64,000 nucleotides of DNA from Acidobacteriota bacterium. Lineage in GTDB: Bacteria; Acidobacteriota; Blastocatellia; Pyrinomonadales; Pyrinomonadaceae. Where the stretch lies: positions 1,815-65,814 of the forward strand of contig JBKPMX010000013.1 of assembly GCA_046765655.1 (NCBI GenBank). The letters run 5' to 3'. The position numbers and the translations under genes were made by a program. Of this stretch, positions 1-54,755 are shown in pieces. How positions within the stretch are numbered: position 1 is the stretch's first letter; each line of letters begins with the position of its first letter. A model generated the notes under the pieces. It saw nothing but the letters and a program-made list of their open reading frames with translations. It did no database searches and was not told the origin of the DNA.

Positions 1-1554
1 ATTGTTTGCGCCAATGTAGCCAATCTAATGATGGCGAGGGCTTCTGTCCGTCGTCGAGAGATTGCCATTCGCTTAGCATTGGGTGCTCGTCGGGGCAGGG
101 TTATTCGTCAACTGCTCACGGAGAGTTTGCTCCTGGCCTTCATTGGAGGATCAGTTGGACTACTCGTCACCCAATGGACGTCTCGCTCGTTGACTGCTTT
201 CTTTCCTGCTGACGATGCTGCGGGTCTCGATCTCAGTATTGACTGGCGCGTTCTTGGCTTTAGTTTAGGACTGACACTTTTGACCGGTATTGTTTTTGGA
301 CTTGCCCCCGCACTGCAAAGCACGCGTGCCAGCCTCACAACTTCTTTGAAAGACGAGCCCACACATGGAACGCGACTCAGGAATTTTGGACTCCGCAACG
401 CGTTGGTTGTTTCTCAATTGGCACTGTCTCTCGTTTTATTAATTGGCGCGGCACTGTTTGTCCGAAGCCTGATTAAGGCCGTGTCATTCGATCCGGGTTT
501 TGCCTCACAAAATCTCTTGATTGCTTCCATCGAAACGCGCGGCACCGCTCTAAACAAACAACAGGGCCTGGCGCTCTACGACGAGGCGGTGCGGCGTGTG
601 AGCACAATGTCCGGCGTCCAATCAGTGACAACGACGCGCGTCATTCCGATCAGTGGCGGCGGCCAGAGACGCGGGACCCATTTTGAAGGTTACGAACCTA
701 AACCGAACGAAGATACAGAAACCAATACGAATATCGTTGGGCTGAATTTCTTCAGCACGATGGGTATTCCCATCGTGCAGGGACGCGATTTCAACTCGCA
801 TGACGTTGAGAGTAGTCCGCTGGTGGTCATCGTTAACGAAGAAGTTGCGCGGAGATATTTTGGCGGTCAGAACGCGATCGGAAGGAAAATTCGTTTCGGC
901 GGCGCGGATATTCCGCAGCGAGAGATTGTGGGTATCGCACGCAATGCGAAGTACAGAAACTTGCGCGAGCAACAACTGCCTTTCATCTATATCCCGCTCG
1001 GTCAGGAATACCAACCAGGCATGACGTTGATGGTGCGCACACAAAGTGATCCATCCGCCTTTGTTCCTTCATTGCGCAATGAGATTCGCTCGCTAACCAA
1101 AGACGTCCCGGTGTTCTCAGTGCAAACCATGACAGATCGTATTGGCAGTCAGCTGTCAGCTGAGCGAATGATCGCCGTCTTATTAAGCATCTTTAGTAGC
1201 GTCGCACTGTTGCTTGCAGCCATTGGTGTCTACGGCGTAATCGCTTACTCGGTCGCGCAAAGAACTCGAGAGATCGGAATCAGAATGGCTTTGGGTGCTG
1301 AAGGGAAAGACATTTTGAAGTTGATTGTAAGCCAGGGATTAACGCTCGTAGTGATCGGCGCGGGCATTGGACTGTTGTTATCGCTTGCGTTCACGCGGCT
1401 GTTGCAAACACTGCTCTTCGGCGTCAGCGCAACCGATCCGTTAACGTTCGGAGCAATTGTCGCGCTGTTGATGCTCGTCGGGTTGGTGGCCTGTTATCTG
1501 CCCGCGCGACGCGCGACGAAGGTCGATCCACTGGTGGCGTTGAGATATGAATGA
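1..1554 (+). CDS. ADOP-family duplicated FtsX/MacB-like permease, 5'-truncated by window edge (array member 1)
   Basis: Frame 1 is open from base 1 (IVCANVANLMMARASVRRREIAIRLALGARRGR), so the window starts inside the first FtsX module. Second module [15 protein letters not shown]; tail [17 protein letters not shown] then stop. Confidence 0.88.
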   Translation: MVCANVANLMMARASVRRREIAIRLALGARRGRVIRQLLTESLLLAFIGGSVGLLVTQWTSRSLTAFFPADDAAGLDLSIDWRVLGFSLGLTLLTGIVFGLAPALQSTRASLTTSLKDEPTHGTRLRNFGLRNALVVSQLALSLVLLIGAALFVRSLIKAVSFDPGFASQNLLIASIETRGTALNKQQGLALYDEAVRRVSTMSGVQSVTTTRVIPISGGGQRRGTHFEGYEPKPNEDTETNTNIVGLNFFSTMGIPIVQGRDFNSHDVESSPLVVIVNEEVARRYFGGQNAIGRKIRFGGADIPQREIVGIARNAKYRNLREQQLPFIYIPLGQEYQPGMTLMVRTQSDPSAFVPSLRNEIRSLTKDVPVFSVQTMTDRIGSQLSAERMIAVLLSIFSSVALLLAAIGVYGVIAYSVAQRTREIGIRMALGAEGKDILKLIVSQGLTLVVIGAGIGLLLSLAFTRLLQTLLFGVSATDPLTFGAIVALLMLVGLVACYLPARRATKVDPLVALRYE

Positions 1555-1626
1555 AGATTTGTCGCGACTTTGTTGGTTGGTAGTTAGTTCTTTGTGCTTG
1601 GTAGTTGTCATGATGTCGAACCAACA

Positions 1627-1722
1627 CTCAATTAAGGAACGGCAGCGAAGCGACCGATTTCAAGTTGCATTGAGTGTGGCGTTCGTTGGAATCGGTCGCT
1701 TCGCTCCCGTTCCTTAATTGAG
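1627..1722. repeat. 96-bp palindromic element (33-nt arms) nested inside a heptad-repeat spacer
   Basis: ctcaattaaggaacggcagcgaagcgaccgatt (1627-1659) is the near-perfect reverse complement of aatcggtcgcttcgctcccgttccttaattgag (1690-1722). Confidence 0.85.
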
Positions 1723-1740
1723 CGCACAACACACAAAGTA

Positions 1741-1794
1741 CAAAGCACCAAGGCCAAAGACCAAAGACCGTAGAGACAAGGAACAAGGAAGAAC
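1741..1794 (+). repeat. 7-nt periodic tract running up to the start codon of member 2
   Basis: CAAAGCA CCAAGGC CAAAGAC CAAAGAC CGTAGAG ACAAGGA ACAAGGA AGAAC then ATG 1795. A partly complementary TTTG-type tract lies at about 1560-1610. Confidence 0.75.
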
Positions 1795-4233
1795 ATGGAC
1801 ACATTAATTCAAGACATCCGTTTCGGAATTCGCATGCTGCTGAAGTCGCCGGGGGTTAGCATCATTGCAACGATCGCTCTCGCACTTGGGATTGGTGCCA
1901 ACACCGCCATCTTCAGCGTTGTAAATGCAGTGTTGCTGCGGCCACTGCCATTCCCGAATTCTGAAGCGCTCACTTCTGTATTTGGCACGAACCGAGAGCG
2001 CGGCGTTTTGCACGGCTCGTTTTCATATCCAGATTTTTTCGATCTGCGTGCACAGAACAGCTCGTTTGAGCGCGTGAGTTGTTATCACGACGGTGACTTC
2101 ATTCTGACCCAGCACGGAGAGCCGGCGCGACTAACTGGTGTTATCGCGACGTCAGACCTATTACCACTCCTCGGTGTCGCACCGATGCTCGGACGCGGTT
2201 TCGTACCGGATGAAGATAAACCATCGGCGAGTCGGGTTGTTGTTCTCAGTCATTCCATGTTTGAGAAGTACTTCAATTCTGATGAGAAGATCCTTAACCA
2301 GCCAATCACGCTCGATGGCAAACCCTTCATTGTCGTTGGGGTGATGCCACGTGGATTTCAGTTTCCGATTCAGAATGACTCGGTCGATCTTTGGACCACG
2401 ATCACTGGTGATGCGTCGGGTTCGGACCCGATAACCGCACAGCGTGGAGCGCACTTCTTAAAAGTGATTGGTCGGTTGAAACCTGGTGTAACTGAAGAAA
2501 AAGCCCAGGCGGACGCCGATACCATTGCCGCACGTTTGGCAGAACAGTATCCCGATACTGATTCGCGGCACGGGATGAGTGTTGAGCAAACACTTCGGGC
2601 AATTGTCGGCGATATAAGACCAGCATTACTAATTCTCCTTGGCGCCGTCTCGTTTGTGCTTTTAATCGCGTGCGCGAATGTTGCAAACCTGCTGCTTGCG
2701 CGCGCGATGTCTCGTTACAAAGAGATGGCAATTAGGTCCGCGCTTGGCGCGAGCCGTTGGCGAGTTGTCCGGCAACTATTGATCGAGAGCATACTGCTTT
2801 CTGTGGTCGGTGGCGCAATTGGTTTGCTGTTGGCCGTTTGGTGGTCTGATCTACTCATCGCCTTAGGAAAAGACGATATCCCACGGGCGACACATGTCAG
2901 CCTTGATTGGCGTGTGCTTCTCTACACGTTCGGTATCTCCGTTTTTACGGGAGTTTTATTTGGATTGGCTCCCGCATTCCATTCTGCCAAGAGTGGCCTA
3001 TCCGAGACTTTGAAAGAAGGACGCGGCGCCGGTGCAGGAGCAAGTAAGAACCGACTCCGAGCGAGTCTTGTAGTCAGCGAAGTTGCGATCGCCGTCGTGT
3101 TATTGGTTGGCGCAGGGCTCTTAATTAAGAGCTTGTGGAGGCTTAATACCGTCAACCCTGGCCTGGATCCTAAGAACATTCTCACCTTCAACGTCGCTCT
3201 GCCGGAAGTAAAGTATCCCTCCGAACGGCAGGCCCAATTCTTTAGCACCCTGAAGAAGCAATTGGAATCAATGCCAGGGGTACAGTCGGCGAGTGTCGTC
3301 GATCCGCTGCCCTTGAGTGGCGAGCGATTCAGCCTCTCGTTTGAGATCGACGGCAGGCCTGTCGCCAAAAAAGATCAACCGTCAGCCGATTTCTTCAACG
3401 TCGATCCGGGGTATTTCAAAACCATGAGTATCCCAATGATCAAAGGAAGAGATTTCGACGATCGAGATAAGCACAAATCAGCCCCAGTAATCATAGTCAG
3501 CGAAACGTTTGCGCGGCAGATTTTTCCCGGTGAAGACGTAATCGGGAAAAGAATTAAGCCCGGTATTTCGGTATTCGAAGACGAAGAGACGCCTTGGCGT
3601 GAAATTGTCGGAGTAGTTGGTGACGTTAAGAATCGTGCACTCAATACCGAGCCACGCCCAGTCTATTACGTTCCTCAAGCGCAGGTTCCGTTCAATCAAG
3701 AGATCATTGTGGTGAAAACGACCGGCGATCCACACGCCCTGGTGAAAGCGGCAACGAAAGAGGTCGGAACATTAGACGGAGACCTTGCAGTCTTCGGTGT
3801 GAAGACGATGGAGGAATACATCAGCCGATCCGTTTCCACTCCACGCTTCAATACGACCTTGCTTTCCATCTTCGCAGGAGTTGCGTTGGTGCTGACGGTC
3901 GTTGGCCTTTACGGCGTGATGAGCTATGCGGTGGCCCAACGAACAAACGAAATTGGAATTCGGTTGGCCTTGGGTGCGCAGACCAGAGATGTGCTGTCGT
4001 TGATTATTGGTCAGGGGCTGCGGCTGGTTCTAGTCGGATTAGCAATCGGGCTACTTGGTGCCTTCGCGTTAATGCGCGTGATCTCTGGCCTATTGTTTGG
4101 CGTGACTGCGAAAGATCCAATGACGTTCATCATTGTATCGGTGGTGCTGGCCGTAATCGCATTGCTGGCTTGTTACGTACCCGCACGCCGCGCGACAAGG
4201 GTCGATCCGCTGGAGGCGTTGCGATACGAATAG
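1795..4233 (+). CDS. ADOP-family duplicated orphan permease (member 2)
   Basis: N-term MDTLIQDIRFGIRMLLKSPG and [11 protein letters not shown] (TM1). FtsX hallmarks [15 protein letters not shown] and [15 protein letters not shown]. Tail [17 protein letters not shown]. 812 aa. Confidence 0.9.
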   Translation: MDTLIQDIRFGIRMLLKSPGVSIIATIALALGIGANTAIFSVVNAVLLRPLPFPNSEALTSVFGTNRERGVLHGSFSYPDFFDLRAQNSSFERVSCYHDGDFILTQHGEPARLTGVIATSDLLPLLGVAPMLGRGFVPDEDKPSASRVVVLSHSMFEKYFNSDEKILNQPITLDGKPFIVVGVMPRGFQFPIQNDSVDLWTTITGDASGSDPITAQRGAHFLKVIGRLKPGVTEEKAQADADTIAARLAEQYPDTDSRHGMSVEQTLRAIVGDIRPALLILLGAVSFVLLIACANVANLLLARAMSRYKEMAIRSALGASRWRVVRQLLIESILLSVVGGAIGLLLAVWWSDLLIALGKDDIPRATHVSLDWRVLLYTFGISVFTGVLFGLAPAFHSAKSGLSETLKEGRGAGAGASKNRLRASLVVSEVAIAVVLLVGAGLLIKSLWRLNTVNPGLDPKNILTFNVALPEVKYPSERQAQFFSTLKKQLESMPGVQSASVVDPLPLSGERFSLSFEIDGRPVAKKDQPSADFFNVDPGYFKTMSIPMIKGRDFDDRDKHKSAPVIIVSETFARQIFPGEDVIGKRIKPGISVFEDEETPWREIVGVVGDVKNRALNTEPRPVYYVPQAQVPFNQEIIVVKTTGDPHALVKAATKEVGTLDGDLAVFGVKTMEEYISRSVSTPRFNTTLLSIFAGVALVLTVVGLYGVMSYAVAQRTNEIGIRLALGAQTRDVLSLIIGQGLRLVLVGLAIGLLGAFALMRVISGLLFGVTAKDPMTFIIVSVVLAVIALLACYVPARRATRVDPLEALRYE

Positions 4234-4244
4234 GTTCTCATTCT

Positions 4245-4393
4245 CCCCGGGCTTTAGCCCGGGGTATGGGCCGTTCTAGTTTCGAAACCGTTTCAACGGT
4301 TTCGCAGCAATCGTTCACGAGATGGTCGAGAAACCGTTGAAACGGTTTCCAGAGTTCTCGTATGACGCTTGATCCCCAGGCTAAAGCCTGGGG
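4245..4393. repeat. composite palindromic element: two inverted units, each made of two short hairpins
   Basis: ccccgggctttagcccgggg ... gaaaccgtttcaacggtttc // gaaaccgttgaaacggtttc ... ccccaggctaaagcctgggg. Each quoted block is itself a stem-loop, and the two halves are inverted copies. Confidence 0.85.
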
Positions 4394-4408
4394 TGAATGA
4401 GACAAAAC

Positions 4409-4462: not shown

Positions 4463-6871
4463 ATGAACACTCTTCTGCGTGACATCCGTTTTGCATTTCG
4501 AAACCTGGCAAAGCGTCCAACGTTTGCAGCGATTGTGATTGTGGTGCTCGGCCTCGGAATCGGATCTACAACGGCCATTTTTTCCATCGTCGATGCACTA
4601 CTGCTGCGGGCGCTGCCTTATCGGAACGCTGATCGCCTCGTCATGCTCCGCGAAGTTGATGCTAAAGGTAATTTGATGCGGATGTCGTCGGCGAATTTTT
4701 CGGATGTCAGCAAACAAAATCGCAGCTTTGATGAAGTCGCATTTTCCGCGGGCAGCTTTCCGCTGGTTATCACAGGTTCTGTAGAACCCGGCCGCGCGAG
4801 AATGTCGTATGGCTCCGCGAGTTTTTTTCGCGCGATGGGAGTCGCACCGATCGTCGGCCGCTCGTTCTTACCGGAGGAGGAAAAATATAAACAGTACGGT
4901 GGGCCAGTTTCAGCTGTCCTGAGCTATGGCTATTGGCAGAAGGCTCTCGCCGGACGATTAGATTTCGCCAATATCAAACTGAATATTGACGGCGTGGACT
5001 GCAACGTCGTCGGAGTAATGCCGCCTTCGTTTGATTATCCCGCGAACACCGAGCTCTGGGTCACGTCAAACGCAGAGCCACCAAACCCTTCACGCACTGC
5101 TCACAACTTTCCCGTCATCGCACTGCTTAAAGAAGGCGTGACGATCGAACAGGCCCAGGCTGATCTGACCCTGATTGCGAAACAGCTAAAGCAGGAGTAT
5201 GGAGAGAAAACAGACGCCGTCGATTTCGGCATCACTCCCCTACAAAGTTTTCTGACGCGAAACGTCAAACAAGGTCTCTGGCTCTTGTTTGGTGCCGTTG
5301 GGCTCTTATTACTTGTCGCCTGCGCTAATTTCTCAAACCTGCTGTTGGGCCAACTGATGTCGCGACAACGCGAGTTCACGCTGCGCATTGCGCTTGGGGC
5401 TTCTCGCGCTCGTCTCATCAGGCAAGTGTTAGTGGAAAACCTGATGCTGACGCTTCCCGCTGCTGCTCTTGGGATTCTGCTGGCAACGTTTGGCGTTCGT
5501 CTTGTCTCAGCTTTGGAAAAAGGAACCCTGCCGAAAATTAACACCATAGGTGTCGATGCGCGGGTTCTTACCTTCGCGTGTGCGCTCAGTGTGTTGATCG
5601 CCGTAGCGTTGAGTTTTTTGCCCGGCTTTAGTTCTCGACGCGATCTAAACGCCGGGTTGAAGGCAGGGACGCGATCACAAACTCGCAGTGGTGGCTATCT
5701 GCGAAGCGGGTTTGTCGTGGGCCAGATTGCATTGACAGTGGTGTTGTTAACAGGCGCGGGCTTGTTGGTGCGCAGCTTTTTGAAGGTGATGGCAGTAAAT
5801 CCGGGCTTCGATTCAAGTGGAGCTTTGGTAATGACCCTGTCGTTGCCCACAACGATAAGTGTCGAAGAGGACGAACGAATCCGACAGTTTTATGTCGGAC
5901 TGCTTGAGCGTGTTGGACAAATACCAGGTGTGACCTCGGTGGGCGGTATAAGCAGCCTGCCTCTTCAAGGTAGCGGCCGAAATGGACAGTTCTTGATCGA
6001 TAACGATCCTAATCAGCCGGGTTACGCCGTTTTTCAAGTTGCGAGCAGCGGATATTTTTCCGCAATGAGAATTCCTCTCCTGCGCGGTCGACTATTCGAC
6101 AGCTCCGACAAAGTAAATGGACAACATGTGGCGGTGATTAGCCAATCGTTGGCTAACCGCTGGCCCAAGGGCGACCCGATTGGACAAAAAATTCAATTCG
6201 GCAACATGGACACTGACAAGCACTTGATGGAAATCGTCGGTGTCGTGGGCGATGTGCATCAATCAAGTCTTGAGGGTGAGGCGCAGCCAACGGTCTATGG
6301 CTTTTCACTTCAGCGACCTCAATGGTGGCAAGTTGCAAGTCTCGAAATCGTTGTTCGTTCGCAGTCTGATCCGAAAGCTTTGATCCCTTCGCTTCGCACA
6401 ACTGTGCAAAGTCTCCGATCCGACGTGCCAATGGATTTCAAAACGCTTCAAGACGTGTATTCGTCGGCGTTCGATGCTCGTCGTCTCACTTTGACATTGT
6501 TTGGTGTGTTTGGCGGAGTCGCGTTGCTAATCGCAATCATCGGCCTGTACGGGATGCTAAGTTTCTCCGTAACCGAAAGAACGCGAGAAATGGGAATCCG
6601 CATCGCGTTAGGTGCTCAGCGGGGTCGTGTGCTTGGTCTGGTGATCACGCAAGGATTGAAGCTCGCGGCCATTGGAGTTGCGATTGGGTTGCTTGGCGCC
6701 TGGGGCGCGACCCGTTTGATGAATGCTTTGTTGTTCGGCGTCACACCTACTGATTCGCTGACGCTTACGATGGTTGTGCTAACGCTCGGCGTGGTCGCGT
6801 TGTTTGCGTGTTATGTGCCTGCACGCCGTGCCACGAAAGTGGATCCTTTGGTGGCGTTGCGAGAGGAATGA
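4463..6871 (+). CDS. ADOP-family duplicated orphan permease (member 3)
   Basis: The ORF opens at 4397, but the first 22 codons only translate the AAAGACC heptad tract. Family-consensus start MNTLLRDIRFAFRNL at ATG 4463. [15 protein letters not shown] / REMGIRIALGAQRGR. Tail [17 protein letters not shown]. Confidence 0.88.
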   Translation: MNTLLRDIRFAFRNLAKRPTFAAIVIVVLGLGIGSTTAIFSIVDALLLRALPYRNADRLVMLREVDAKGNLMRMSSANFSDVSKQNRSFDEVAFSAGSFPLVITGSVEPGRARMSYGSASFFRAMGVAPIVGRSFLPEEEKYKQYGGPVSAVLSYGYWQKALAGRLDFANIKLNIDGVDCNVVGVMPPSFDYPANTELWVTSNAEPPNPSRTAHNFPVIALLKEGVTIEQAQADLTLIAKQLKQEYGEKTDAVDFGITPLQSFLTRNVKQGLWLLFGAVGLLLLVACANFSNLLLGQLMSRQREFTLRIALGASRARLIRQVLVENLMLTLPAAALGILLATFGVRLVSALEKGTLPKINTIGVDARVLTFACALSVLIAVALSFLPGFSSRRDLNAGLKAGTRSQTRSGGYLRSGFVVGQIALTVVLLTGAGLLVRSFLKVMAVNPGFDSSGALVMTLSLPTTISVEEDERIRQFYVGLLERVGQIPGVTSVGGISSLPLQGSGRNGQFLIDNDPNQPGYAVFQVASSGYFSAMRIPLLRGRLFDSSDKVNGQHVAVISQSLANRWPKGDPIGQKIQFGNMDTDKHLMEIVGVVGDVHQSSLEGEAQPTVYGFSLQRPQWWQVASLEIVVRSQSDPKALIPSLRTTVQSLRSDVPMDFKTLQDVYSSAFDARRLTLTLFGVFGGVALLIAIIGLYGMLSFSVTERTREMGIRIALGAQRGRVLGLVITQGLKLAAIGVAIGLLGAWGATRLMNALLFGVTPTDSLTLTMVVLTLGVVALFACYVPARRATKVDPLVALREE

Positions 6872-6896
6872 TGGGTTTTTGTGGGCACTCAATATA

Positions 6897-7010
6897 GTGG
6901 GAAACAGTCAGTACCGAAACGCGGTAGCGGTGGGTCCGCTCTGTTACCGCCCGTTGAGTGTTAGGTGGCGGATCCGACGCTACCGCGTTTCGGTACTGAC
7001 TGTTTCCCAC
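6897..7010. mobile_element. palindromic MITE/REP-like element, family A copy 1
   Basis: gtgggaaacagtcagtaccgaaacgcggtagcg (6897-6929) and its exact reverse complement cgctaccgcgtttcggtactgactgtttcccac (6978-7010). The same arms recur at 23738 and 54766. Confidence 0.85.
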
Positions 7011-7049
7011 TGTGATGACAAATATGAAAGCTCTTAGGAATACAAGCAA

Positions 7050-9473
7050 ATGAATTTACTATTGCAAGACATCCGCTTCGGTTTTCGAATGCTGTTCAAG
7101 AATCCAGTTGTCACCCTAGTAGCGATCTTAGCGCTGACGCTCGGCATTGGTGCGAACACTGCGATCTTCAGCGTCGTGTATGCAGTGATGCTTGGATCGC
7201 TGCCATACAAGAATGCCGATCAAATAGTAGTTGTATGGGAGAAACAGCCGGAAAACGATCAGAACACGATCAACATAGGTAATTTCGCCGACTGGAAGAA
7301 ACAGAACACTGTGTTTTCCGACATGGCTGCATTTTTCGATTACAGAAGTCAGGCGACTGGGGAGGGAGCGCCAGAAGAGATTCCATCCCAACTTGCTACA
7401 CCCAACCTGTTTTCCGTTTTGGGGGTGAGCCCAATCATCGGTCGCGGCTTTACCGAGGAGGATGCAGCGGAGGGTTCTCCCAGCGTCGTTGTAATTAGTT
7501 ATGGACTTTGGCAGCGGCGCTACGGTGCCGACCCAGGAATCGTCGGTCGAAAAATCACACTCAATAGCAATCCGGCAACAGTTGTGGGTGTTATGCCTCG
7601 AGATTTTGGTTGGCATGTTCGCAAAGCATCGCGCACGCGCAAACCGGCGGAACTTTGGGCACCGTGGCGTTTTAGTTCGGGCATGCTCGAGCGCCGTGGC
7701 CGCTTCGCAATGTCAGTCGCTCGGCTGAAACCGGGAGTCACAGTCGAACAAGCACAGAGCGAGATGAACACGATCGCGTCGCGGCTAACCCAGCAATATC
7801 CTGACTTCAACACAAACTGGGGTGTCAATGTTGTACCTGTGCGGACGCAATTCACTGGTGACCTTCGTAAGCCGCTCTGGATTCTACTCGGGGCAGTTGG
7901 GTTTGTTCTGTTGATAGCGTGTGCGAATGTCGCGAATCTTTTACTCGCGCGTGCTACAGCGCGAAGAAAAGAGATCGCAGTGCGTATCGGTCTTGGCGCA
8001 AGTCGGTCGCGTGTTGTGCGTCAGTTGCTAACTGAAAGCTTATTGCTGTCAGCGGTCGGCAGTACGTTAGGTTTGTTAGTAGCTGTCTGGGGAACGAGGG
8101 CGCTAATTGCAATTGGTCCACCCTCGTTGGCAAGCGTCACAGGCGTCGGCGTCAACATTCCCGTGCTTGGCTTCACGCTCGGTGTTGCCTTACTCACGGC
8201 GATCCTTTTCGGACTAGTGCCGGCATTCGAAGCTTCACGTTTCAGCTTCAATGACTCGTTGAAAGAAGGTGGAAAGAATATCGGTGGTAGCGCGGGTAGC
8301 CACCGTTTTCGAAACCTGTTTGTCGTAACGCAAGTGGCGCTTGCCCTGTTGTTACTGGTAGGCGCAGGCTTGTTACTGAAGAGTCTCAATCGCTTGCAAT
8401 CAGTCGATCCGGGGTTCAACGCGAAGAACCTTTTGACCTTGCGAGTTAGTTTGCCTCCTCAAACGCCCGACGGAAAGTGCGTCTCCTTCTTTCAAACTTT
8501 ACTAGAACAAGTACGTGGAATTCCGGGCGTAGAGTCAGCCGGCGCAATCGATACATTGCCCTTCACCTCACAACATTCCGGAACGATCGTGGAGATCGTA
8601 GGAGAGGCGAAACGTCCTGCTGGCCAGGAACTGGAAACCGGCGTTGGCGTCACGGATCAAGATTACTTCAATGCAATGCAGATCCCACTCAAGCGCGGGC
8701 GTCTATACACAAAACAGGAAGCGATCGAAGCCCGGCATGTTGTTGTCGTAAACGAGACCTTCGCTCGAGTGAATTTTCCTGGCCAGGATCCATTGGGTAA
8801 ACGCGTCATCATTTACATGAAAGACGAGAACGTACCTTCTGAAATCATCGGCATTGTCGGCGACAGCAAGCACATGGGCCTCGATAAGATGCCGGACGCA
8901 ATGTCTTACTGGCCTCACGCCGAACTTGCGTATGCGCAAATGACTTTGGCGATCCGCACGAAAGGGGATGCGGCAAGTTTTGCACCGGCCATTAGGGAAC
9001 TGGTTTCGCGAATGGATCCAAACCAGCCCATCAGTGATGTCGCAACAATGGAGCAACTCCTGGCTGTATCAGTGTCACGCTCAAAATTTAATACGAGTTT
9101 GCTCGTAATCTTTGCGATCGTTGCATTGGTCATGGCTGTTGTCGGGATCTACGGCGTGATGTCTTACACGGTAACGCAAAGGACGCACGAGATTGGTGTG
9201 CGCATGGCACTCGGTGCGCAAACGCGTGACGTGATGAAGTTGGTGGTAATGCGCGGCCTCGTTCTTGGACTGATTGGTGTTGCGGTTGGCGTGGCAGCGG
9301 CCTTCGCGCTAACGCGATTGATGACAACGCTATTGTTCGAAGTGACGCCAACGGACGCAACTGTTTTTGCGAGCGTCGCCGTGGGTTCGTTCCTGGTCAC
9401 GTTGCTGGCCTGTTCAATTCCAGCACGACGCGCGACCAAAGTAGATCCACTTAAGGCGCTCAGGTACGAATGA
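7050..9473 (+). CDS. ADOP-family duplicated orphan permease (member 4)
   Basis: [34 protein letters not shown] / [15 protein letters not shown]. Tail [17 protein letters not shown]. Confidence 0.9.
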
Positions 9474-9478
9474 AAGAT

Positions 9479-9570: not shown

Positions 9571-9576
9571 AGTTTT

Positions 9577-12012: not shown

Positions 12013-12020
12013 AAGGCGCG

Positions 12021-12097: not shown

Positions 12098-12101
12098 CGA
12101 T

Positions 12102-17167: not shown

Positions 17168-17173
17168 AAGGAG

Positions 17174-41835: not shown

Positions 41836-41840
41836 GCGAG

Positions 41841-41938: not shown

Positions 41939-41999
41939 CGATGTGCTCTTACCACTTTGCCCTTTGCCGCATCGATCTAGCTTACGCGGAGGTCTATTC

Positions 42000-46886: not shown

Positions 46887-46892
46887 AACGAA

Positions 46893-46997
46893 CATTTGCC
46901 ATTTGTCGTTTGCCATTCTTCATTTGCCATTTACACGCCGCGTCGCGTTGTTTTCTAAGTGGCAAATGAAAAATGGCAAATGACATACGGCAAATGG
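46893..46997. repeat. spacer hairpin with CATTTGC / GGCAAAT heptad arms
   Basis: Left CATTTGC CATTTGT CGTTTGC CATTCTT CATTTGC CATTTA. Right GTGGCAA ATGAAAA ATGGCAA ATGACAT ACGGCAA ATGG. Confidence 0.85.
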
Positions 46998-47085
46998 CTT
47001 GGTCTTTTCCAGCACAAGTCGGTTACGGGCGGTGTTTACCCGTTAGACAGTCGTAATCCAAATTTCCAACAGCTCAGGGTGCATC

Positions 47086-49542
47086 ATGCAAAAGCTCCTG
47101 CAAGACATGCGTTTCGGCATCCGAATGCTCTTGAAGAATCCGGGCGTGTCGTTGGTTGCCATCCTTACGCTCGCCGTCGGAATTGGCGCGAACGCCGCCA
47201 TCTTCAGCGTCGTCAACACTGTTCTCCTCCGTCCACTTCCATATAAAGATCCCGGGCGGCTGGTGGCGATTTGGGAAAACCAGCCAAGCCAAGGTCAAAC
47301 GCGCGTATCACCGGCAAACTTCTTCGATTGGAAGAAACAAAGCACGTCGTTTGAGGACATGTCGGCATATGGCGGCTCCGCGATGACGCTCACTGGTGAT
47401 GGTGAACCCGAGCAGCTGTCTGGGACACGCGTGAGTTCTGGGTATTTCGACGTCGTCGGAATTAGGCCGATGTTGGGTCGCGCGTTTCTTGCTGACGAAT
47501 ATGAGGTCGGAAAAGGACAAGTCGTAATCCTCGGCCATGGTCTTTGGCGACGTCGTTTTGGATCAGACGAAAACATCGTGAATAAGAGTGTGACGCTTGA
47601 CGGTCAACCGTACACGGTTGTTGGTGTCATGCCGCCAGGTTTGTACCCAGTTCGTCCCACGACCTCCGGTCACCTGGCATTCGGCGAAGAGCAACAACAC
47701 TTCTGGATACCAATGTCGTTTGCTGCGCAGTGGGCAGCCGTACGCACGGCGCATGTGCTCGGCGTAGTTGGCAGACTCAAACAGGGGGTCACACTTGAGC
47801 AGGCACGCAACGAGATGAACACGATCGGTGCGCGACTCGCGCAACAGTATCCGGCGAATATGGGCGAAGGCATTCTTGTAAACCCGTTCATGAATGAAAT
47901 GGTCGGTGATGTTCGTCCAGCACTGCTGATACTTTTCCTCGCCGTCGGACTCGTGTTGTTGATTGCCTGCGCCAACATCGCCGGCCTCCGACTCGCACAA
48001 CACTCCGCACGTAGTAAGGAGATCGCAATTCGTGCAGCCTTGGGTGCGCCTCGCCGGCGGCTCATCACGCAGTTCTTTGTCGAAGGATTATTGCTGTCGT
48101 TAATCGGGGCTATCGTCGGCTTAGCAGTTGCCGTCCTTGCAATGAAGACGTTGATCAGCTTCGTGCCGCAAGACATTCCACGCCTGGCAGACGTTGGACT
48201 CGACTGGAGAGTCCTGGGTTTTACGCTGCTTCTGTCAGTCGGGAGTTGCGTGTTATTTGGGTTGATTCCCGCGTGGCACGCCTCACAACCGGATCTGCAT
48301 ACCGCACTCGAACAGGCAGGCCGCAGTTCTGGTCCGGGTTCGTACAGATTGCGCTTCCGCCAATCACTCGTTGTCTTTCAGGTGAGCATCGCAGTGATGC
48401 TAGTCATTGGTGCCGGCCTATTAATAAGGAGCTTCTGGCTCTTGCAGCGGGTTGATCCTGGATTCCAACCACAGCGTGTGTTGTCGGTCGGTATAACGCT
48501 ACCGTTCAGCAAATACACCGACCCAGTGCGAATCAACCAGTTCTTCAATGGAATCCAAGATCGCATCGCTGGCGTGCCGGCTGTTCAATCAGCCGCGATC
48601 GGATACGACCATCCTTTACAAACAAACTGGACCGAATCTTTTGAGATTGAAGGACATGTTATTCCTTCGGATCAGCGGGCCCCGGTGGCTAATTTCAATC
48701 CTGTGTCACCTGACTATTTCAAAACAGTCGGAGTCCAGTTGGTTACGGGGCGGCATTTCACCGCCGACGATAACCACGATCACCCGGGTGTCGCTATCGT
48801 TAATGAAGCTTTTGTGCACAAGTATTTAGCCGGCGATAAAGTCATCGGCACACGGATAAAGACGCAACAGGCGCCGCGAATTTGGAAAGACAATCGCTTC
48901 GCCTGGTTCGAGATCGTTGGCGTTGTGCGCGACGTTAAATCAGGTGGACTAAAAGAGGCAGCTGAGCCGACTTACTATCTTCCCGCAGCACAAGTTCCTT
49001 TGCAGGACATGGTGTTGCTCGTCCGAACGTCGGGTGAACCGTCGACGCTCGTGTCAGCTATTCAGCGCGCCGTGTGGGCGATCGATCCTGACCAGCCAAT
49101 CGCGGATGTGAAGACTCTCGAGCAGGTGATTTCAGATAGCGTGGCCCAACCTCGATTCAACATGTTTCTGATGGGGATGTTTGGCGTGCTTGCGCTGTTG
49201 TTGGCGGTGATCGGAATCTACGCGCTCCTGTCGTACGCAGTCACGCAACGTAAACAGGAACTGGGAATTCGGATGGCACTCGGCGCAAATCGTGGCGATG
49301 TATTGAAACTTGTGTTGCGCCAGGGAATGACATTGGCTTTGTTGGGAGAAGTGGTTGGTTTAATTGGAGCTGTCGCATTAACGCGAGTGATGCGTGGGCT
49401 GTTGTTCGGGATTGGACCACTTGATGTAACCACATTCGCGAGTGTCGTAATTGGATCGACGTTTGTTGCTGTCGTGGCGTGTTACATCCCAGCGCGACGC
49501 GCAACGAAAGTCGACCCGTTGGTGGCGCTTCGATATGAATGA
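47086..49542 (+). CDS. ADOP-family duplicated orphan permease (member 19)
   Basis: MQKLLQDMRFGIRMLLKNPGV. KEIAIRAALGAPRRR / [15 protein letters not shown]. Tail [17 protein letters not shown]. Confidence 0.9.
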   Translation: MQKLLQDMRFGIRMLLKNPGVSLVAILTLAVGIGANAAIFSVVNTVLLRPLPYKDPGRLVAIWENQPSQGQTRVSPANFFDWKKQSTSFEDMSAYGGSAMTLTGDGEPEQLSGTRVSSGYFDVVGIRPMLGRAFLADEYEVGKGQVVILGHGLWRRRFGSDENIVNKSVTLDGQPYTVVGVMPPGLYPVRPTTSGHLAFGEEQQHFWIPMSFAAQWAAVRTAHVLGVVGRLKQGVTLEQARNEMNTIGARLAQQYPANMGEGILVNPFMNEMVGDVRPALLILFLAVGLVLLIACANIAGLRLAQHSARSKEIAIRAALGAPRRRLITQFFVEGLLLSLIGAIVGLAVAVLAMKTLISFVPQDIPRLADVGLDWRVLGFTLLLSVGSCVLFGLIPAWHASQPDLHTALEQAGRSSGPGSYRLRFRQSLVVFQVSIAVMLVIGAGLLIRSFWLLQRVDPGFQPQRVLSVGITLPFSKYTDPVRINQFFNGIQDRIAGVPAVQSAAIGYDHPLQTNWTESFEIEGHVIPSDQRAPVANFNPVSPDYFKTVGVQLVTGRHFTADDNHDHPGVAIVNEAFVHKYLAGDKVIGTRIKTQQAPRIWKDNRFAWFEIVGVVRDVKSGGLKEAAEPTYYLPAAQVPLQDMVLLVRTSGEPSTLVSAIQRAVWAIDPDQPIADVKTLEQVISDSVAQPRFNMFLMGMFGVLALLLAVIGIYALLSYAVTQRKQELGIRMALGANRGDVLKLVLRQGMTLALLGEVVGLIGAVALTRVMRGLLFGIGPLDVTTFASVVIGSTFVAVVACYIPARRATKVDPLVALRYE

Positions 49543-49563: not shown

Positions 49564-52032
49564 ATGGGAACCTTATGGCAAGACATCCGTTACGGCGTGC
49601 GCATGTTAAGGAAGACGCCGAGCGTTAGCATTATCGTCGTCATCGCACTCGCCCTCGGCATTGGTGCGAACACTGCAATCTTCAGCGTCGTTAATGCTGT
49701 GCTTCTGCGCCCGCTGCCATACGAGGAAGCGGATCGACTTCTGTTTTTGAACGAGAAGAGCCAGGCGCTTGATGAGATGTCGATCTCGTATCCGAATTAT
49801 CAGGATTGGAAAGCGCAGAACCATGTCTTCGAAGCCATCGGCGTTTATAACCGCCAAAGTTATAACCTCACGGGCGTCGGCGAAGCGGAACGAATTGTCA
49901 CAGGTCAAGTGTCCGCTGATCTTTTCACCGTTTTGCGTGCGCGTCCGGAACTCGGACGTGTCTTCACCAATGATGAAGATAAACCCGGTACTGCCCCTGT
50001 CGTCGTTCTGAGTTATGGCCTGTGGCAACGTCGATTCGGCGGAGACAAAGGCATTCTTAATCAACCGATCAACCTTAACGGAAAAAGCTACACCGTGATT
50101 GGCATCATGCCGGCAAGTTATTTATATCCGAGCCGCGTAGAGATGTGGGTACCAGTGGGCCAGTTATCCGATTCGGCAGCTTGGAAAGAGCGGGGAAATC
50201 ATCCTGGTCTGTATGGAGTTGCGCGCCTGAAACCCGGGATCACTCAGGATCAGGCACAGGCCGATATGGACTTGATTGCAGGAAATCTTGAGAAACAATA
50301 CCCAAACTCAAACCAGGGCACACGAGTTAGGATTCGGCAGATGCTCGAGATCTTTATAAGTGACGTGCGCAGGCCGTTGTGGGTGATCTTTGGAGCTGTC
50401 GGATTTGTATTGCTGATCGCTTGCGCCAACATCGCCAACCTCTTGCTGGCCAGAGCCACAGCGCGGAGAAAAGAAATGGCCATTCGCTCGGCAATGGGCG
50501 CGGGCCGTTGGCGGATTGTGCGCCAGCTTCTTACCGAAAGCATCTTGTTATCGCTTGTCGGCGGCATTATCGGATTGGCACTCGCACGCTTTGGGATCGA
50601 TTTCATACTGAAGATAAGTCCAACGGCAATCCCACGGTCCAGGGAGATTGGACTGGACTGGACCGTCCTTGCATTTACGATCGGCGTGGCGTTCATTACC
50701 GGGATACTTTTCGGAATAATCCCGGCGTTGCAAGCAGGAGAAGTTGACGTCAACGAAACGTTGAAAGAAACAGGCCGCGGCACAAGTGGCCGGCATTGGC
50801 TGCGCAGTTCGCTCGTGGTGGTGGAAGTTGGGACCACGCTAGTCCTCTTGATCGGGGCTGGTTTAATGATCCGAAGTTTCTACAAACTGCAGCAGGTCCA
50901 TCCCGGCTTCTCCTACGAGAATCTGGCTAGCTTCAGCGTGTCGTTACCTGAGAAGAAGTATGTGACTCAAGATCAGCAGGGGGCGTTCTTTAATCGGTTG
51001 TTGGAGGACATTCGAGCAATGCCGGGTGTTGAATCTGCCGCCGTCGCATCTGGCTTACCTCTGGGAAACAATGGTTGGCAAACAGGATTTACTATCGAAG
51101 GTCGTCCGGCACCGGATCCGAAAGACACGCCGCTGATGGAAGCTTGCCTTGTTAGCCCCGATTATTTTCGTGCAATGCAGATTCCTGTGCTGCGTGGTCG
51201 CGTCTTTACTGATCAAGATAATAGAGCGCATGTGAATCCTGAGGCAGAGAAGAAGCTACCGGAAGAAAGACGACCGATGGCGGGCCTGCAGTACCTTGTG
51301 ATTGATGAGTTATTCGCTAAGCGATACTGGCCCAATGAAGATCCGATCGGCAAACGGATCATACTCGGTGGCGCGGATCCTGACAGTCTGAGACTGGAGG
51401 TGATTGGTGTCGTCGGAAGAGTGAAGATGGAAAGTTTGGGTACGGATGACAACCGAGTACAGGGTTATTTTCCGTTTTTGCAGATGCCTGACAATTCAAT
51501 GACCGCGATCATCAAAGCCAGCTCGGATCCAAATCAACTGATCACTTCTGTCAGACAGGCGGTTAAGTCAATCGATCCCGATCAGCCGATCTATAACCCT
51601 CGAACAATGGGAGACATCCGCGCCGAATCGGTCGCGCCGGAACGGTTGAATCTAACGCTACTCGGAATCTTCGCAGGCATCGCGCTAGTCCTGGCGATTG
51701 TTGGTATCTACGGCGTCATGTCTTACTCAGTTACACAACGCACTCACGAAATTGGCATTCGCATGGCCATTGGTGCGCAGCGACGGGATGTGTTCAAGAT
51801 GATCCTGGGGCAGGGAATGAAACTCGCGCTAATTGGGATCGGGATTGGTCTCGTCGGTGCGTTTGCCTTGACGCGATTGATGGCGTCAATGCTCTTCGGA
51901 GTGGAGCCGACCGATGCAACGACCTTTGGGGCTATCTCTGTACTGCTTACCGTTGTTGCGCTGTTAGCGTGCTTTTTGCCGGGTCGCCGCGCGACAAAGG
52001 TCGAGCCAACAGTGTCGTTGCGATACGAGTAG
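49564..52032 (+). CDS. ADOP-family duplicated orphan permease (member 20, insert-bearing subtype)
   Basis: [21 protein letters not shown] with AGGAGA upstream, 21 nt after the previous stop. [15 protein letters not shown] / [15 protein letters not shown]. Divergent tail [17 protein letters not shown]. Extra segment [24 protein letters not shown]. Confidence 0.88.
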
Positions 52033-52058
52033 GGAGTTGGACTTTGATCTTGGTACAA

Positions 52059-52255
52059 GCCTGCGAAGCAGGCGGGAGCATAAAGCCTGGGGCGTGAGCC
52101 CCAGGAAAACTGCGCCTCATTCTCACGAGCCCGTGAAACGGGCGGCAGCGGAAAATCTATCGATCTTTCGCCCGCTCCGCGGGCTCGGCATTCAAAAACG
52201 GTAGACTCCCTGGGGCTGACGCCCCAGGCTTTATGCTCACGCCTGCTTCGCAGGC
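52059..52255. mobile_element. palindromic MITE-like element, family B copy 2
   Basis: Same termini as 19719-19909. The right-hand ~41 nt ctgacgccccaggctttatgctcacgcctgcttcgcaggct are identical in both copies. Internal hairpin gcccgtgaaacgggc at 52129-52143. Confidence 0.85.
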
Positions 52256-52257
52256 TA

Positions 52258-52290
52258 GGAAACACCGCCATCTTCAGTTTAGTCGATGCG
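52258..52290 (+). pseudogene. 33-nt relic of an ADOP 5' coding region
   Basis: gga aac acc gcc atc ttc agt tta gtc gat gcg translates to GNTAIFSLVDA, the family TM1 box ([24 protein letters not shown]). It is out of frame with ATG 52329, has no start codon, and directly abuts element B copy 2. Confidence 0.55.
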
Positions 52291-52328
52291 AATCAACAAT
52301 CATCAATATTAATGCCTAGGAGCTCGCG

Positions 52329-54755
52329 ATGGATACGTTTCTTCAAGACATTCGCTATGGTATACGTTCGTTGTTGAAGCAACCTGCCTTCACAGCGATC
52401 GCAATCATAACCATCGCACTCGGAATCGGAGCTAACACCGCGATCTTCAGTGTCGTCAATGCAGTGATCCTTCGCCCGCTTCCTTACCCTGATGCCGACA
52501 AACTCGTGATGCTGTGGAGCACGACACCAAAGGATGGAAACCAGGAACAGCCATTCTCATTTGCCGACTTCAACGATGTGCGAGCTCAAGCAAAATCTTT
52601 TTCGAACATCGCCGCCGCGTCTCCACTCTGGAATTTCACTTTGACTGGCGGCGGCGAACCAGAACCCATTCAGGGACTCTTCGTGTCGCAGAATCTCTTC
52701 GAAATGTTAGGTGCACGACCGGCAATCGGCCGCACCTTTCTCCCGGATGATGATCGACAGGGCGCGAATCCGGTCGTAGTCATTAGTCACGCTTTGTGGC
52801 AAAGGCGATTCGGTGGCGATTCAAATGTGCTCGGACGTCCGCTGAACGTTAGCGGCGTGAACGCCAGCATCGTCGGAGTTATGCCTGAGGACTTTTATTT
52901 TCTCGAATCCGCCGCGGAACTCTGGGCTCCCCTTTCGCAGAATCAGTTCGCCGGCAGTGCCCGGAACGTCCGACTGCTTTCCGTTGTAGGCCGATTGCAT
53001 GATCGCGTTCCGCTGACGCAGGCCAACGCAGAACTCTCTGCGATTAGCGGCCAACTAGCAGCTCAGTATCCGGATACGAATTCAGGATTCGGCTTGCGCG
53101 CCCTTTCATTGCACCAACAGGTAACTGGCAAAGTGCGCGGGGCGTTGTTGTTGCTTCTCGGCGCAGTCGGGCTAGTTCTCCTGATCGCGTGCGTCAACGT
53201 TGTGAATTTGATGTTGGTGCGCAGCGCGGGCCGAAGCAGAGAGATTGCAGTCCGTGCTGCAGTTGGCGCAGGTCGATTCCGTTTGCTTCGGCAATTGCTT
53301 ACCGAGAGCATTACGTTATCGGTGTTCGGTGGTGCCGCAGGAGCTTTGGTTGCGACTTGGGGCGTGAAACTCCTGCTTACGCTTAATCCCATCGCGCTGC
53401 CTCGCTATAACAAAATCGGAGTTGATTCGACGGTGCTGCTGTTCACGCTGGCGGCGTCAGTGATCACTGGGATCGTCTTTGGCTTAGCACCGGCATGGCG
53501 AATGTTCAAGTTCGATTTAAATTCGGTTCTCAAAGAGGGTGGACGCGGGACCGTCGATACAAGTCAACATCGACTGAGCAGTGCACTCGTTAGTCTGGAG
53601 ATAGCGACGGCGTTTGTGTTGCTGATTGGTGCTGGACTCTTGATTCGAAGTTTTGCACGACTCGTCGACGTAAATCCGGGTTTCGAAACTCAGCACACTC
53701 TTACGATGCAGGTAGGACTTCCGAACGCGAGTTACGGTGAACCGCAAAAGCGAATTGGGTTTGTGCAACAGTTGGAAGCGAATTTGAAAGGGATCCCTGA
53801 TGTCACGTCAGTGGGAATCGTAACCCGTCTGCCCTTGTTAAGCGCTCTTAATAACGTCACGACGTTCCTCACAATCGAAGGCCGGCAGATGCAACCCGGT
53901 GAAAGACCCGAAATTGATTTTCGACGGGCGAGTACGGGTTATTTCGAAGCGATGAACATACCGCTGATCGCCGGGCGATTGGTGACAGAGCAGGATGTTA
54001 CAAACAACACGCATTCGGTTGTTATCAATGAAGCGATGGCCAAGCGTTTTTGGCCGGGCGAAGATCCGATAGGGAAGCATATCAGCACCGCGACAGCCAC
54101 GGGTCAGCAAACTCAGTGGCAAACGATTGTTGGCATCGTCGGAAACGTTCGCCATCTCGGTTTGGATACTGAACCACGTCCTGAACTTTACTATCACTCG
54201 AATACGTCTCCGCCATTCGGGCCAGTGCTGGTGATCCGATCGAAAGGCGATCCGAAGGCACTGATTTCGCTGGCTCGCGCGAAGGTACGAGAGCTTGATG
54301 GCGATGTGCCGGTTTCGAATGTCAACACAATGGATCAACTGGTGGCGCAGTCAGTCGCGCAACGTCGCTTCGGAATGTTTTTGTTGACGGGTTTTGCAGC
54401 GTTGGCGCTGCTGCTTGCAGCTATTGGGATTTATGGTGTCATCAGTTATTCAGTAGCGCAGCGTACGCAGGAGATAGGAGTGCGCATGGCGTTGGGTGCG
54501 CGCACTGCAGACGTACTCAAACTCGTAATGACGAATGGTTTGAAACTGGCCGCGATGGGGTTAGCAATTGGCCTCGTTGGAGCATTTTTATTGACCCGAC
54601 TAATGGCGCGTTTGCTGTTCCACGTTGGACCAACCGACGCGGTTACGTTTGCGAGTGTCTCCGTCGGCTTGTTGCTGGTAGCATTTCTCGCCTGCTATCT
54701 TCCGGCACGCCGCGCCACGAAAGTGGATCCTTTGGTGGCGCTGCGGTGCGAATGA
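52329..54755 (+). CDS. ADOP-family duplicated orphan permease (member 21, last of array)
   Basis: [21 protein letters not shown] with AGGAG upstream. [15 protein letters not shown] / [15 protein letters not shown]. Tail [17 protein letters not shown]. Confidence 0.9.

Follow-up and report, generated by a model that had tools for sequence, protein, structure and literature searches.

INTRODUCTION

In the ATP-binding cassette (ABC) protein MacB, a major and a minor coupling helix contact the nucleotide-binding domain (NBD) (PMC5985334). Escherichia coli YbbP is a pseudo-symmetric fused permease, and its two coupling helices bind two YbbA ATPase subunits (PMC12646458). The ADOP permeases (TIGR03434) are among the most expanded gene families of soil Acidobacteriota, and the ATPase that they supposedly lack is the chief puzzle. 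ADOPs have also been described from Psychroflexus torquis, which carries a highly translated 42-kb cluster of about 10 paralogs (PMC3914696), and from Dyadobacter genomes, which hold 28 to 33 copies (PMC11573002). Here we analyze a 64,000-nucleotide stretch of contig JBKPMX010000013.1 (assembly GCA_046765655.1), which we call the window. It covers the 3′ three quarters of a same-strand ADOP array from an uncultured soil Pyrinomonadaceae-like acidobacterium. Within this known family, whose function has not been explained, the array is an extreme case. We propose, with a probability of roughly 55%, that its products are single-chain Type VII ABC permeases resembling YbbP, which draw on a common, conserved ATPase provided in trans and form a repertoire of specificities.

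RESULTS

The window holds 21 ADOP genes of a longer array

From the listing of open reading frames (ORFs) and refinement of their starts, we found 20 complete ORFs and 1 ORF cut at the 5′ edge (positions 1 to 1554), all on the plus strand. This agrees with the original prediction, which was made from the letters of the window. An in-frame ATG lies directly ahead of an L(L/I)QD(I/L)RY box in each ORF of the array. With the refined starts, the proteins are 799 to 833 aa long and not 802 to 833 aa as first proposed. All 21 ORFs exceeded the curated TIGR03434 cut-off of 622.3 bits, the complete ORFs scoring 838 to 1026 bits and the truncated one 646 bits, and we therefore retained the predicted assignment to ADOP. 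We also found that all 21 match PF12704 (MacB_PCD) and PF02687 (FtsX), with two stretches of each in member 1. Each ADOP is two MacB_PCD-FtsX modules within one chain. E-x3-R-x3-GA is invariant in both halves of all members. The longer motif that had been predicted twice per protein, [KR]E[IM][AG][IV]R.ALGA, is too strict, as its literal pattern matches 0 to 2 times per protein.

We considered and rejected the possibility that these proteins are ordinary LolC or MacB permeases. The equivalog cut-offs were missed widely (MacB, 125 bits against 966; DarB, 35 against 700; LolC, 19 against 473; LolE, likewise far below). The DarB permease model was matched by 19 of the 21 ADOPs, in each case below its cut-off. 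The nearest named homologs of array members are proteins from Pyrinomonadaceae/Blastocatellia metagenome-assembled genomes, at 70 to 80% identity.

Pairwise identity among the window ADOPs ranges from 32 to 53%, with a median of 39%. The genes starting at 31501 and 49564 had been named as the closest pair, and the identity matrix places them there at 53%. For no member is the nearest relative the adjacent gene. Reading frames are intact in all 20 complete ADOPs, and the spacers between ADOPs are 12 to 296 nt long. The sole exception is a 1.5-kb gap at 19719 to 21267, which is occupied by a non-ADOP gene. The predicted single array stands in that ADOPs run throughout; it is interrupted at 19930 to 21057, and its start lies upstream of the window.

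A contig in the European Nucleotide Archive (ENA) from the same population (L084) overlaps window bases 1 to 1394 with 3 mismatches and adds six ADOPs upstream. A Joint Genome Institute (JGI) contig supplies a seventh upstream ADOP, of 808 aa. With the 21 ADOPs of the window, the array therefore comprises at least 28 ADOP genes over at least 73 kb. This count is a lower bound, as the 5′ end was not reached and the extended sequence, of 80 kb, still ends in ADOPs. Large paralogous expansion in Acidobacteriota is a feature of the family, and at least 28 paralogs in one array represent such an expansion. The JGI 3300041967 contig (26,952 bp) carries the 812-aa gene (window 1795 to 4233) and then, in place of the next ADOP, three ORFs (510, 296, and 357 aa) that match no Pfam family. 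It is either a strain variant of differing array content or a misassembly.

ADOPs have the fold of fused Type VII permeases and conserve their coupling helices

Hydropathy and an AlphaFold 2 (AF2) model (pLDDT, 81) gave eight transmembrane (TM) helices in a 4+4 layout, with one periplasmic domain after TM1 and one after TM5. The chain runs from an N-terminal amphipathic helix through TM1, periplasmic domain 1, TM2, a coupling helix, TM3, and TM4 to a short cytoplasmic linker. The second half follows as TM5, periplasmic domain 2, TM6, a second coupling helix, TM7, TM8, and a C-terminal helix. We found in it the elements of the Type VII fold, namely, a 4-TM unit whose first two helices flank a large domain outside the cytoplasm and whose second and third helices are joined by a coupling helix on the cytoplasmic side. 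In a fold search of the PDB, the full-length model came closest to YbbP of the E. coli YbbAP complex (9ge6_A; E = 4.5e-19). Taken singly, both halves resemble MacB, and the search also returned LolE and BceB. Searched as a profile against the PDB, the ADOPs aligned with the transmembrane domain (TMD) and periplasmic domain of MacB (5lil; E = 1.9e-40), with the coupling helix aligned as well. In the hidden Markov model (HMM) alignment, the conserved ADOP coupling segment corresponds residue for residue to MacB ERTKEIGVRMAIGA, the major coupling helix. The ADOP tail aligns to the MacB C terminus, which is the minor coupling helix.

Identity was computed by region, with paralog values taken among the 20 complete members. 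The periplasmic domains are 30% identical among paralogs and 74 to 76% identical between orthologs, so each ADOP copy keeps its own periplasmic version. The corresponding values are 61% and 86% for coupling helix 1, 74% and 95% for coupling helix 2, and 86% and 97% for the C-terminal helix. Consistently with the original prediction of a constant scaffold with variable periplasmic domains, the paralogs differ most in the periplasm (30%) and least in the coupling elements (61 to 86%).

Conserved ATPase and adaptor genes head other ADOP arrays

ADOPs are recognized by the lack of a fused or adjacent ABC ATPase (PF00005). We found none in the window, in its 80-kb extension, or in a 43-kb stretch of the matching array of a sister species, sequences in which the array head is not seen; neither an ORF with Walker A and LSGGQ motifs nor a tblastn match to the two ATPase families described below was present. 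Searches by tblastn with ATPase, HlyD, PadR, and YceI examples gave no match in the window or the 80-kb extended sequence. Pfam searches of the seven non-ADOP ORFs of the window found no outer-membrane factor, and no ybbA or tesA gene was found in the window. The association of ADOPs with PadR regulators (TIGR03433), which is not strictly defining, was also absent from the window and its extension.

We surveyed ADOP loci elsewhere, using the best-scoring 80 of at least 597 (GTDB) and the best-scoring 80 of at least 593 (metagenome) family-wide pattern matches. The metagenome sample was seeded by the most upstream sister gene; its pattern, HEIGIRMA, is family-wide and so yielded generic ADOP loci at ≤50% identity. 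Each locus extends ±10 kb, and we counted heads only in arrays of at least four ADOPs with a visible 5′ end (n = 16). ATPases were detected as ORFs with a Walker A and then an LSGGQ pattern. We found that an ABC ATPase gene lies directly 5′ of the array in 8 of the 16, usually with an HlyD adaptor gene ahead of it. These ATPases are about 240 aa long and are encoded on the same strand as the array. Two more of the 16 arrays are headed by HlyD (L004 and L138) and one by PadR (L162).

HlyD genes stand at the array heads of L004, L023, L025, L028, L073, L075, and L138. Pfam confirmed HlyD followed by ABC_tran in L023, L028, L073, and L075, ABC_tran in L027, and HlyD in L025. The sites at which array-associated ATPases were noted include 4294 to 5079 in L023, 1146 to 1886 in L027, 6769 to 7512 in L028, 1840 to 2577 and 12427 to 13152 in L073, 3493 to 4299 and 11892 to 12605 in L075, and 8408 to 9900 in L025. 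PadR (TIGR03433; 134 to 138 bits against a cut-off of 101.8) heads singletons and short arrays elsewhere.

We distinguished two families among the ATPases. Family A has the signature FYTDEVETHAL, is 67 to 92% identical across the phylum, and typically stands at the array head after HlyD. Family B has the signature VLRRINLDI, is 62 to 88% identical, and typically lies within or 3′ of arrays. In an NCBIfam check of two ATPases, one from each family, the best scores were to DarD, LolD, the MacB NBD, FtsE, and YbbA, which are of the Type VII class. The original prediction had called the permeases orphans. That description holds within the window, where no ATPase, HlyD, or PadR gene is found; 8 of the 16 other arrays start with an ABC ATPase. 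We concluded that "orphan" applies to this 80-kb stretch and perhaps to half of arrays and is not a family property.

An old array in a clade where great length is routine

We found a largely collinear array in the sister species, on ENA contig_26877 (419 kb). The sister stretch that we assembled is 43 kb long with both ends open, extends to about 31 kb upstream of the ortholog of gene 1795, and still ends in ADOPs. It contains at least 18 ADOP ORFs or fragments and one YceI gene. Eleven genes of the window organism have sister orthologs at 70 to 87% identity, whereas every paralog comparison gave ≤53%. The two arrays also differ by members without an ortholog (in both directions), one neighbor swap, two copies with frameshifts, and one fragment. 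Some of the frameshifts may be errors of the sister contig, which was assembled from long reads. Orthologs of single members occur at 60 to 80% identity on many Pyrinomonadaceae contigs. As orthologs are 60 to 87% identical across the clade and paralogs ≤53%, the duplications long predate the radiation of the clade. Judged from these comparisons, the array has a history of ancient duplications followed by birth-and-death evolution, and the predicted old, maintained array is supported by both the identities and the largely conserved synteny. Recent amplification was considered and rejected, as the paralog identities are too low and the orthologs too well conserved.

Strain variation was visible against a sibling-strain contig (L001). 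Background divergence is 0 to 0.4%, and the regulator, kinase, and gal genes downstream of the array are 99.6 to 100% identical. Gene 52329 shows 17 synonymous changes and 1 nonsynonymous change between the two strains. The visible 3′ half of gene 49564 (50566 to 52032 against L001 1 to 1467) is 8.9% different, with 95 synonymous and 36 nonsynonymous changes (dN/dS, about 0.13), and 31 of the 36 nonsynonymous changes lie in periplasmic domain 2. This hot-spot is mostly synonymous and therefore looks like sequence imported by recombination between strains or like the end of a chimeric contig. The spacer at 54756 to 54910 is 5% different in L001, and the one at 52033 to 52328 has 1 difference.

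The original prediction had regarded the size of the array as unusual and had named routine arrays of such length as grounds for refutation, and this largely applies in the clade. For orthologs in the sister and two other genomes (contigs of 4.68 and 6.14 Mb), the surrounding 22 kb hold 9 to 10 ADOPs from edge to edge, and in the two other genomes ADOPs alone surround an 854-aa ortholog. At least 12 of the 160 surveyed loci are ADOP throughout (for example, L016 with 8, L020 with 10, and L091 with 9), and same-strand arrays are common. Long ADOP arrays are routine in the Pyrinomonadaceae-like clade. The array of at least 28 genes is the largest documented here; equally long ones elsewhere are likely, as the survey views cover just ±10 kb.

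Gene order across the window

All the ADOP genes are on the plus strand and are given here with their TIGR03434 scores. The window opens with the last 517 codons of an 815-aa gene (1 to 1554; 646 bits), which is full length on overlapping contigs. The 812-aa gene at 1795 to 4233 (1025 bits; AF2 pLDDT, 81) has two MacB_PCD and two FtsX stretches and a sister ortholog at 83% identity. It is followed by genes of 802 aa at 4463 to 6871 (838.6 bits; sister ortholog, 81%) and 807 aa at 7050 to 9473 (984 bits), the sister ortholog of the latter being split by a frameshift. For the 811-aa gene at 9577 to 12012 (998 bits), no ortholog was found in the sister array, and the 823-aa gene at 12102 to 14573 (892 bits) is represented there only by a 179-aa remnant. 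Sister orthologs reappear for the 833-aa gene at 14666 to 17167 (926 bits; 70%) and the 810-aa gene at 17286 to 19718 (908 bits; 84% over the visible part).

Beyond the interrupting gene at 19930 to 21057, the array resumes with genes of 799 aa at 21268 to 23667 (967 bits), 814 aa at 23919 to 26363 (911 bits), and 813 aa at 26424 to 28865 (944 bits). The 821-aa gene at 28878 to 31343 (974 bits) starts 12 nt past the preceding stop codon. Another gene of 821 aa, at 31501 to 33966 (968 bits), is the one whose closest paralog is 49564 (53%). Then come genes of 823 aa at 34181 to 36652 (923 bits), 816 aa at 36800 to 39250 (957 bits), 819 aa at 39376 to 41835 (943 bits), 802 aa at 42000 to 44408 (970 bits), 812 aa at 44448 to 46886 (987 bits), and 818 aa at 47086 to 49542 (1000 bits). 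The 822-aa gene at 49564 to 52032 (1026 bits) is the one whose 3′ half has diverged from the sibling strain, and an 808-aa gene at 52329 to 54755 (1021 bits) is the final array member.

Genes within and beside the array

The gene that interrupts the array (19930 to 21057, plus strand) encodes a secreted protein of 375 aa with a signal peptide, an N-terminal beta domain, and C-terminal helical repeats in which SDYE[KR] recurs. It had no sequence match in Pfam, NCBIfam, or the PDB. In a single-sequence AF2 model, the C-terminal part forms an alpha-solenoid (pLDDT, 80 to 94) whose fold matches only generic tetratricopeptide or other helical-repeat proteins. We found homologs at 32 to 40% identity inside ADOP arrays at L030 (2933 to 4117), L120 (7585 to 8763), and L010 (3550 to 4512). 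The secreted protein may be a periplasmic accessory of ADOP systems. In the sister array, a gene of the YceI family (periplasmic lipid- or polyisoprenoid-binding proteins) lies between ADOPs (L086, 4276 to 4851) and is absent from the matching part of the window organism.

At the 3′ end, a gene for a sigma-54-dependent response regulator (54911 to 56287, plus strand; Pfam Response_reg, Sigma54_activat, and HTH_8) starts 156 nt past the last ADOP. It has receiver, AAA+, and Fis-type helix-turn-helix domains, and its NCBIfam matches are AtoC/NtrC/ZraR-like, below the equivalog cut-offs. Its partner, a sensor histidine kinase with PAS and HATPase_c domains, is encoded next (56404 to 57789, plus strand). 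The prediction that the array has no regulator partner was thus not borne out, as a sigma-54 two-component system abuts its 3′ end, though we found nothing that links the two functionally. In a search for sigma-54 −24/−12 sites (TGGCAC-N5-TTGC, with ≤2 mismatches), 65 were found where 69 were expected, and no spacer held one at a plausible position. A GAFTGA activator lies near ADOPs in just 3 of the 160 surveyed loci, which is no general association. Because the spacers lack a sigma-54 promoter and activators are so rarely found near ADOPs, the pairing of regulator and array may be coincidental. Only one promoter-like site is well placed, TTGCCA-18-AATATT preceded by a TG (54875 to 54904); it is the best of its region and lies ahead of the response regulator. 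Sigma-70-like promoters and intrinsic terminators were at or below shuffle expectation, and the array spacers hold no canonical terminator and no sigma-70-like promoter.

Farther downstream, at 57980 to 59743, the window contains two secreted or lipoprotein-like ORFs. The 431-aa product weakly matches a PKD-like or choice-of-anchor V family, and the 155-aa product matches DUF4829. In its precomputed annotation, L001 shows a GNAT acetyltransferase gene (about 59798 to 60226, plus strand) and an isolated Phage_T4_gp19 gene (contractile tail-tube-like, PF06841; about 60269 to 60679, minus strand). These two genes sit between the array-side genes and a galM-galK-galT cluster.

Many array spacers are tandem-heptamer hairpins or hold palindromic elements

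Most spacers of at least 89 nt contain one long hairpin, with z-scores of −5 to −15 against shuffles. The hairpin spans from right past the stop codon to a few nucleotides ahead of the next ATG. Its arms are often tandem heptamers, with 7-nt self-identity of 0.4 to 0.73 compared to about 0.3 at periods 6 and 8. Examples are (AAAGACC)n, (CTAAAGA)~10, (GAGCTAA)8, and (AAATGGC)n. Heptamer-hairpin spacers with z-scores of −5 to −9 and 7-nt self-identity of 0.43 to 0.73 lie at 9474 to 9576 (plus strand, with arms GGCCTTn and AAAGRCC), 17168 to 17285, 31344 to 31500, 36653 to 36799, 39251 to 39375, 41836 to 41999, and 46887 to 47085. Further ones lie at 12013 to 12101, 14574 to 14665, and 33967 to 34180. 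Spacers built in this way, though from other heptamers, also occur in the array of the sister species and in ADOP arrays of other Blastocatellia. Within 250 nt of an ADOP ORF, the density of heptamer tracts is 333 per Mb, compared to 10 per Mb in the remaining DNA; as the latter is mostly coding, the true intergenic enrichment is perhaps about 4-fold. The spacer heptamers are reminiscent of cyanobacterial STRR repeats.

Three spacers hold copies of a palindromic family of about 130 nt (6872 to 7049, 23668 to 23918, and 54756 to 54910; z = −14.7, −12.8, and −7.7). The copy at 6872 to 7049 is an element like a miniature inverted-repeat transposable element (MITE) or a repetitive extragenic palindrome (REP), with arms GTGGGAAACAGTCAGTACCGAAACGCGGTAGCG and the inverse. 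A palindrome family with GCCTGCGAAGCAGGC termini and CCTGGGGC-loop-GCCCCAGG hairpins gave paired Rfam matches to Acido-Lenti-1 at 33 to 35 bits, under the gathering score of 37. Other than these subthreshold matches, an Rfam search of the window returned only spurious miRNA-family matches on palindromes. MITE/REP-like palindromes, which fall into several families and are nested in some spacers, also lie at 19719 to 19929, 52033 to 52328, 4234 to 4400, 21058 to 21267, and 63642 to 63732.

DISCUSSION

A shared ATPase and a repertoire of permeases

We favor a model in which each ADOP, like E. coli YbbP, amounts to a MacB dimer or LolCE pair joined covalently. According to this model, each ADOP would dock a dimer of a small, highly conserved MacB/LolD-class ATPase, with the two major coupling helices and the minor one at the C terminus as contacts. 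Binding of ATP would zip the stalk helices and move the periplasmic domains (mechanotransmission), and substrate located in the periplasm or in the outer leaflet of the inner membrane would be expelled or extracted. If an HlyD-type adaptor is present, the substrate would pass into a tripartite duct. The ATPase, and the adaptor if any, would be encoded once, at the array head or elsewhere in the genome, and would be common to many permeases. We infer that the divergent periplasmic domains, kept in each orthologous line, are a repertoire of substrate or partner specificities. The array would have evolved by ancient duplications and then by gain, loss, pseudogene formation, and local reshuffling. 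A more specific version, which we regard as possible but would not bet on, is one motor with many heads. In that version, the at least 28 permeases compete for a few family A or B ATPases and adaptors in clearing the envelope, and the spacer hairpins may tune which heads are made.

Several points weigh against the shared-ATPase model. No ABC ATPase, adaptor, or outer-membrane factor gene was found in the 80 kb here or in the 43 kb of the sister, in neither of which the array head was reached. Half of the multigene arrays with a visible 5′ end have no adjacent ATPase, just ten neighbor ORFs (five ATPases and five HlyD proteins) were checked with Pfam, and the curated description of TIGR03434 rests on the absence of an ATPase. 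The ATPases of family A have a median identity of 74%, whereas the ADOPs that follow them have a median of 42%, no better than random paralogs. This contrast fits a constant motor with exchangeable permeases but is only suggestive, because in every ABC system the NBD is better conserved than the TMD.

The same absences would be expected if ADOPs were true orphans that work with no ABC ATPase, as devices driven passively or by the proton motive force, as receptors, or as structural envelope proteins, with the helices serving another partner or folding. Most singletons and the PadR-headed units, like about half of the multigene arrays, have no ATPase beside them, and the family is defined by that lack. 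However, the segments homologous to the MacB coupling helices are the best conserved of all (61 to 86% among paralogs and 86 to 97% between orthologs), two ATPase families recur at the heads of and inside arrays, and all characterized FtsX-fold proteins work with an NBD (PMC5985334). We therefore consider ATPase-free function distinctly unlikely. ADOPs could instead be ATP driven and yet not be pumps, acting as mechanotransducers on periplasmic proteins or lipids with a different partner for each paralog. Models for such a role are FtsEX, which activates a hydrolase; LolCDE, which extracts lipoproteins; YbbAP-TesA, in which a lipid hydrolase is fed; and BceAB, which serves in sensing, and the Type VII family has several nonefflux members (PMC5985334; PMC12646458). 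The best fold match, YbbP, works with a periplasmic hydrolase, a TesA-like thioesterase lies in the P. torquis cluster (PMC3914696), and many arrays have no HlyD adaptor. Accessory genes are embedded in arrays as well, namely, the secreted repeat protein here and in three other arrays and YceI in the sister array. Yet one or two accessory genes for 28 permeases are few for a partner per paralog, and HlyD at the head of several arrays argues for tripartite efflux in at least those. We think a nonpump role unlikely.

The spacers raise the question of a contingency locus, in which one or a few members would be expressed at a time and hairpins would act as switches (by slippage, RNA processing, or termination) to vary an exposed envelope component. 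Nearly every spacer is a long tandem-heptamer hairpin, heptamer tracts are enriched beside ADOPs and occur in other arrays too, the strain divergence hot-spot is concentrated in periplasmic domain 2 of one member, and array content differs between the sister species. Against this, repeat number did not vary between strains in the single available spacer pair (52033 to 52328), the hot-spot is mostly synonymous, and ADOP periplasmic domains are not surface exposed in a diderm; we hold such switching to be very unlikely. A neutral or decaying array, left over from runaway tandem duplication and serving as no repertoire, would agree with the frameshifted and fragmentary copies in the sister array, some of which may be long-read errors. 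In contrast, all 20 complete copies here are intact despite identities of 32 to 53%, single-member orthologs stay at 60 to 87% across a family-level clade, and the changes between strains are mostly synonymous. Neutral amplification is largely refuted by this conservation of orthologs and is almost certainly wrong. Taking all of these data together, we prefer the model of YbbP-like permeases that would share an ATPase provided in trans.

Assuming a genome size like that of the 4.7- and 6.1-Mb related contigs, the at least 28 genes amount to about 1 to 2% of the genome. The orphan puzzle can now be tested, as there are two candidate ATPase families, an HlyD-ATPase-ADOP array head, and docking segments that are the best-conserved parts of the permeases. 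If one ATPase does serve many permeases, this would be a new ABC organization, for which no precedent has been described. The arrangement would probably also help to determine how dominant soil bacteria withstand antimicrobial or lipophilic compounds.

Comparison with known systems

The array resembles the ADOP family as described under TIGR03434 in its duplicated MacB_PCD-FtsX chain, in its acidobacterial expansion, and in the lack of an adjacent ATPase in the sequence available. It differs in being larger, with at least 28 genes in one same-strand run, and in having no PadR neighbor. The ADOP cluster of P. torquis genomic island 43 is likewise a set of tandem paralogs of unknown function (PMC3914696). 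That cluster is about a third of the size and lies on a horizontally acquired island in a member of the Bacteroidota; it is interleaved with a thioesterase and with transporters that have ATP-binding regions, whereas a single secreted repeat protein is the only insertion here (PMC3914696).

YbbP is alike as a single-chain, pseudo-dimeric FtsX-type permease of about 800 aa in which each of two coupling helices binds one ATPase subunit. It has 10 TM helices (4+2+4) compared to 8 in ADOPs, and ybbP is a single gene beside ybbA and tesA. An ADOP scores 32.8 bits against the YbbP model NF041854, whose cut-off is 999, and so ADOPs are not YbbP orthologs and the likeness is one of fold only. In MacAB-TolC, MacB is a homodimer with a fused N-terminal NBD, whereas an ADOP is a fused dimer without an NBD. 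The ADOP halves align to the MacB TMD and periplasmic domain, with near-identical coupling-helix and C-terminal motifs. The window has neither the HlyD adaptor nor the outer-membrane factor of a tripartite system; HlyD adaptors and MacB-class ATPases head related ADOP arrays. DarBCD, DevBCA, and LolCDE are split Type VII systems with the ATPase on a separate polypeptide, and the array-head ATPases score best to DarD. ADOPs score far below the equivalog cut-offs of these systems, which pair one permease gene, or two, with each ATPase, and not dozens.

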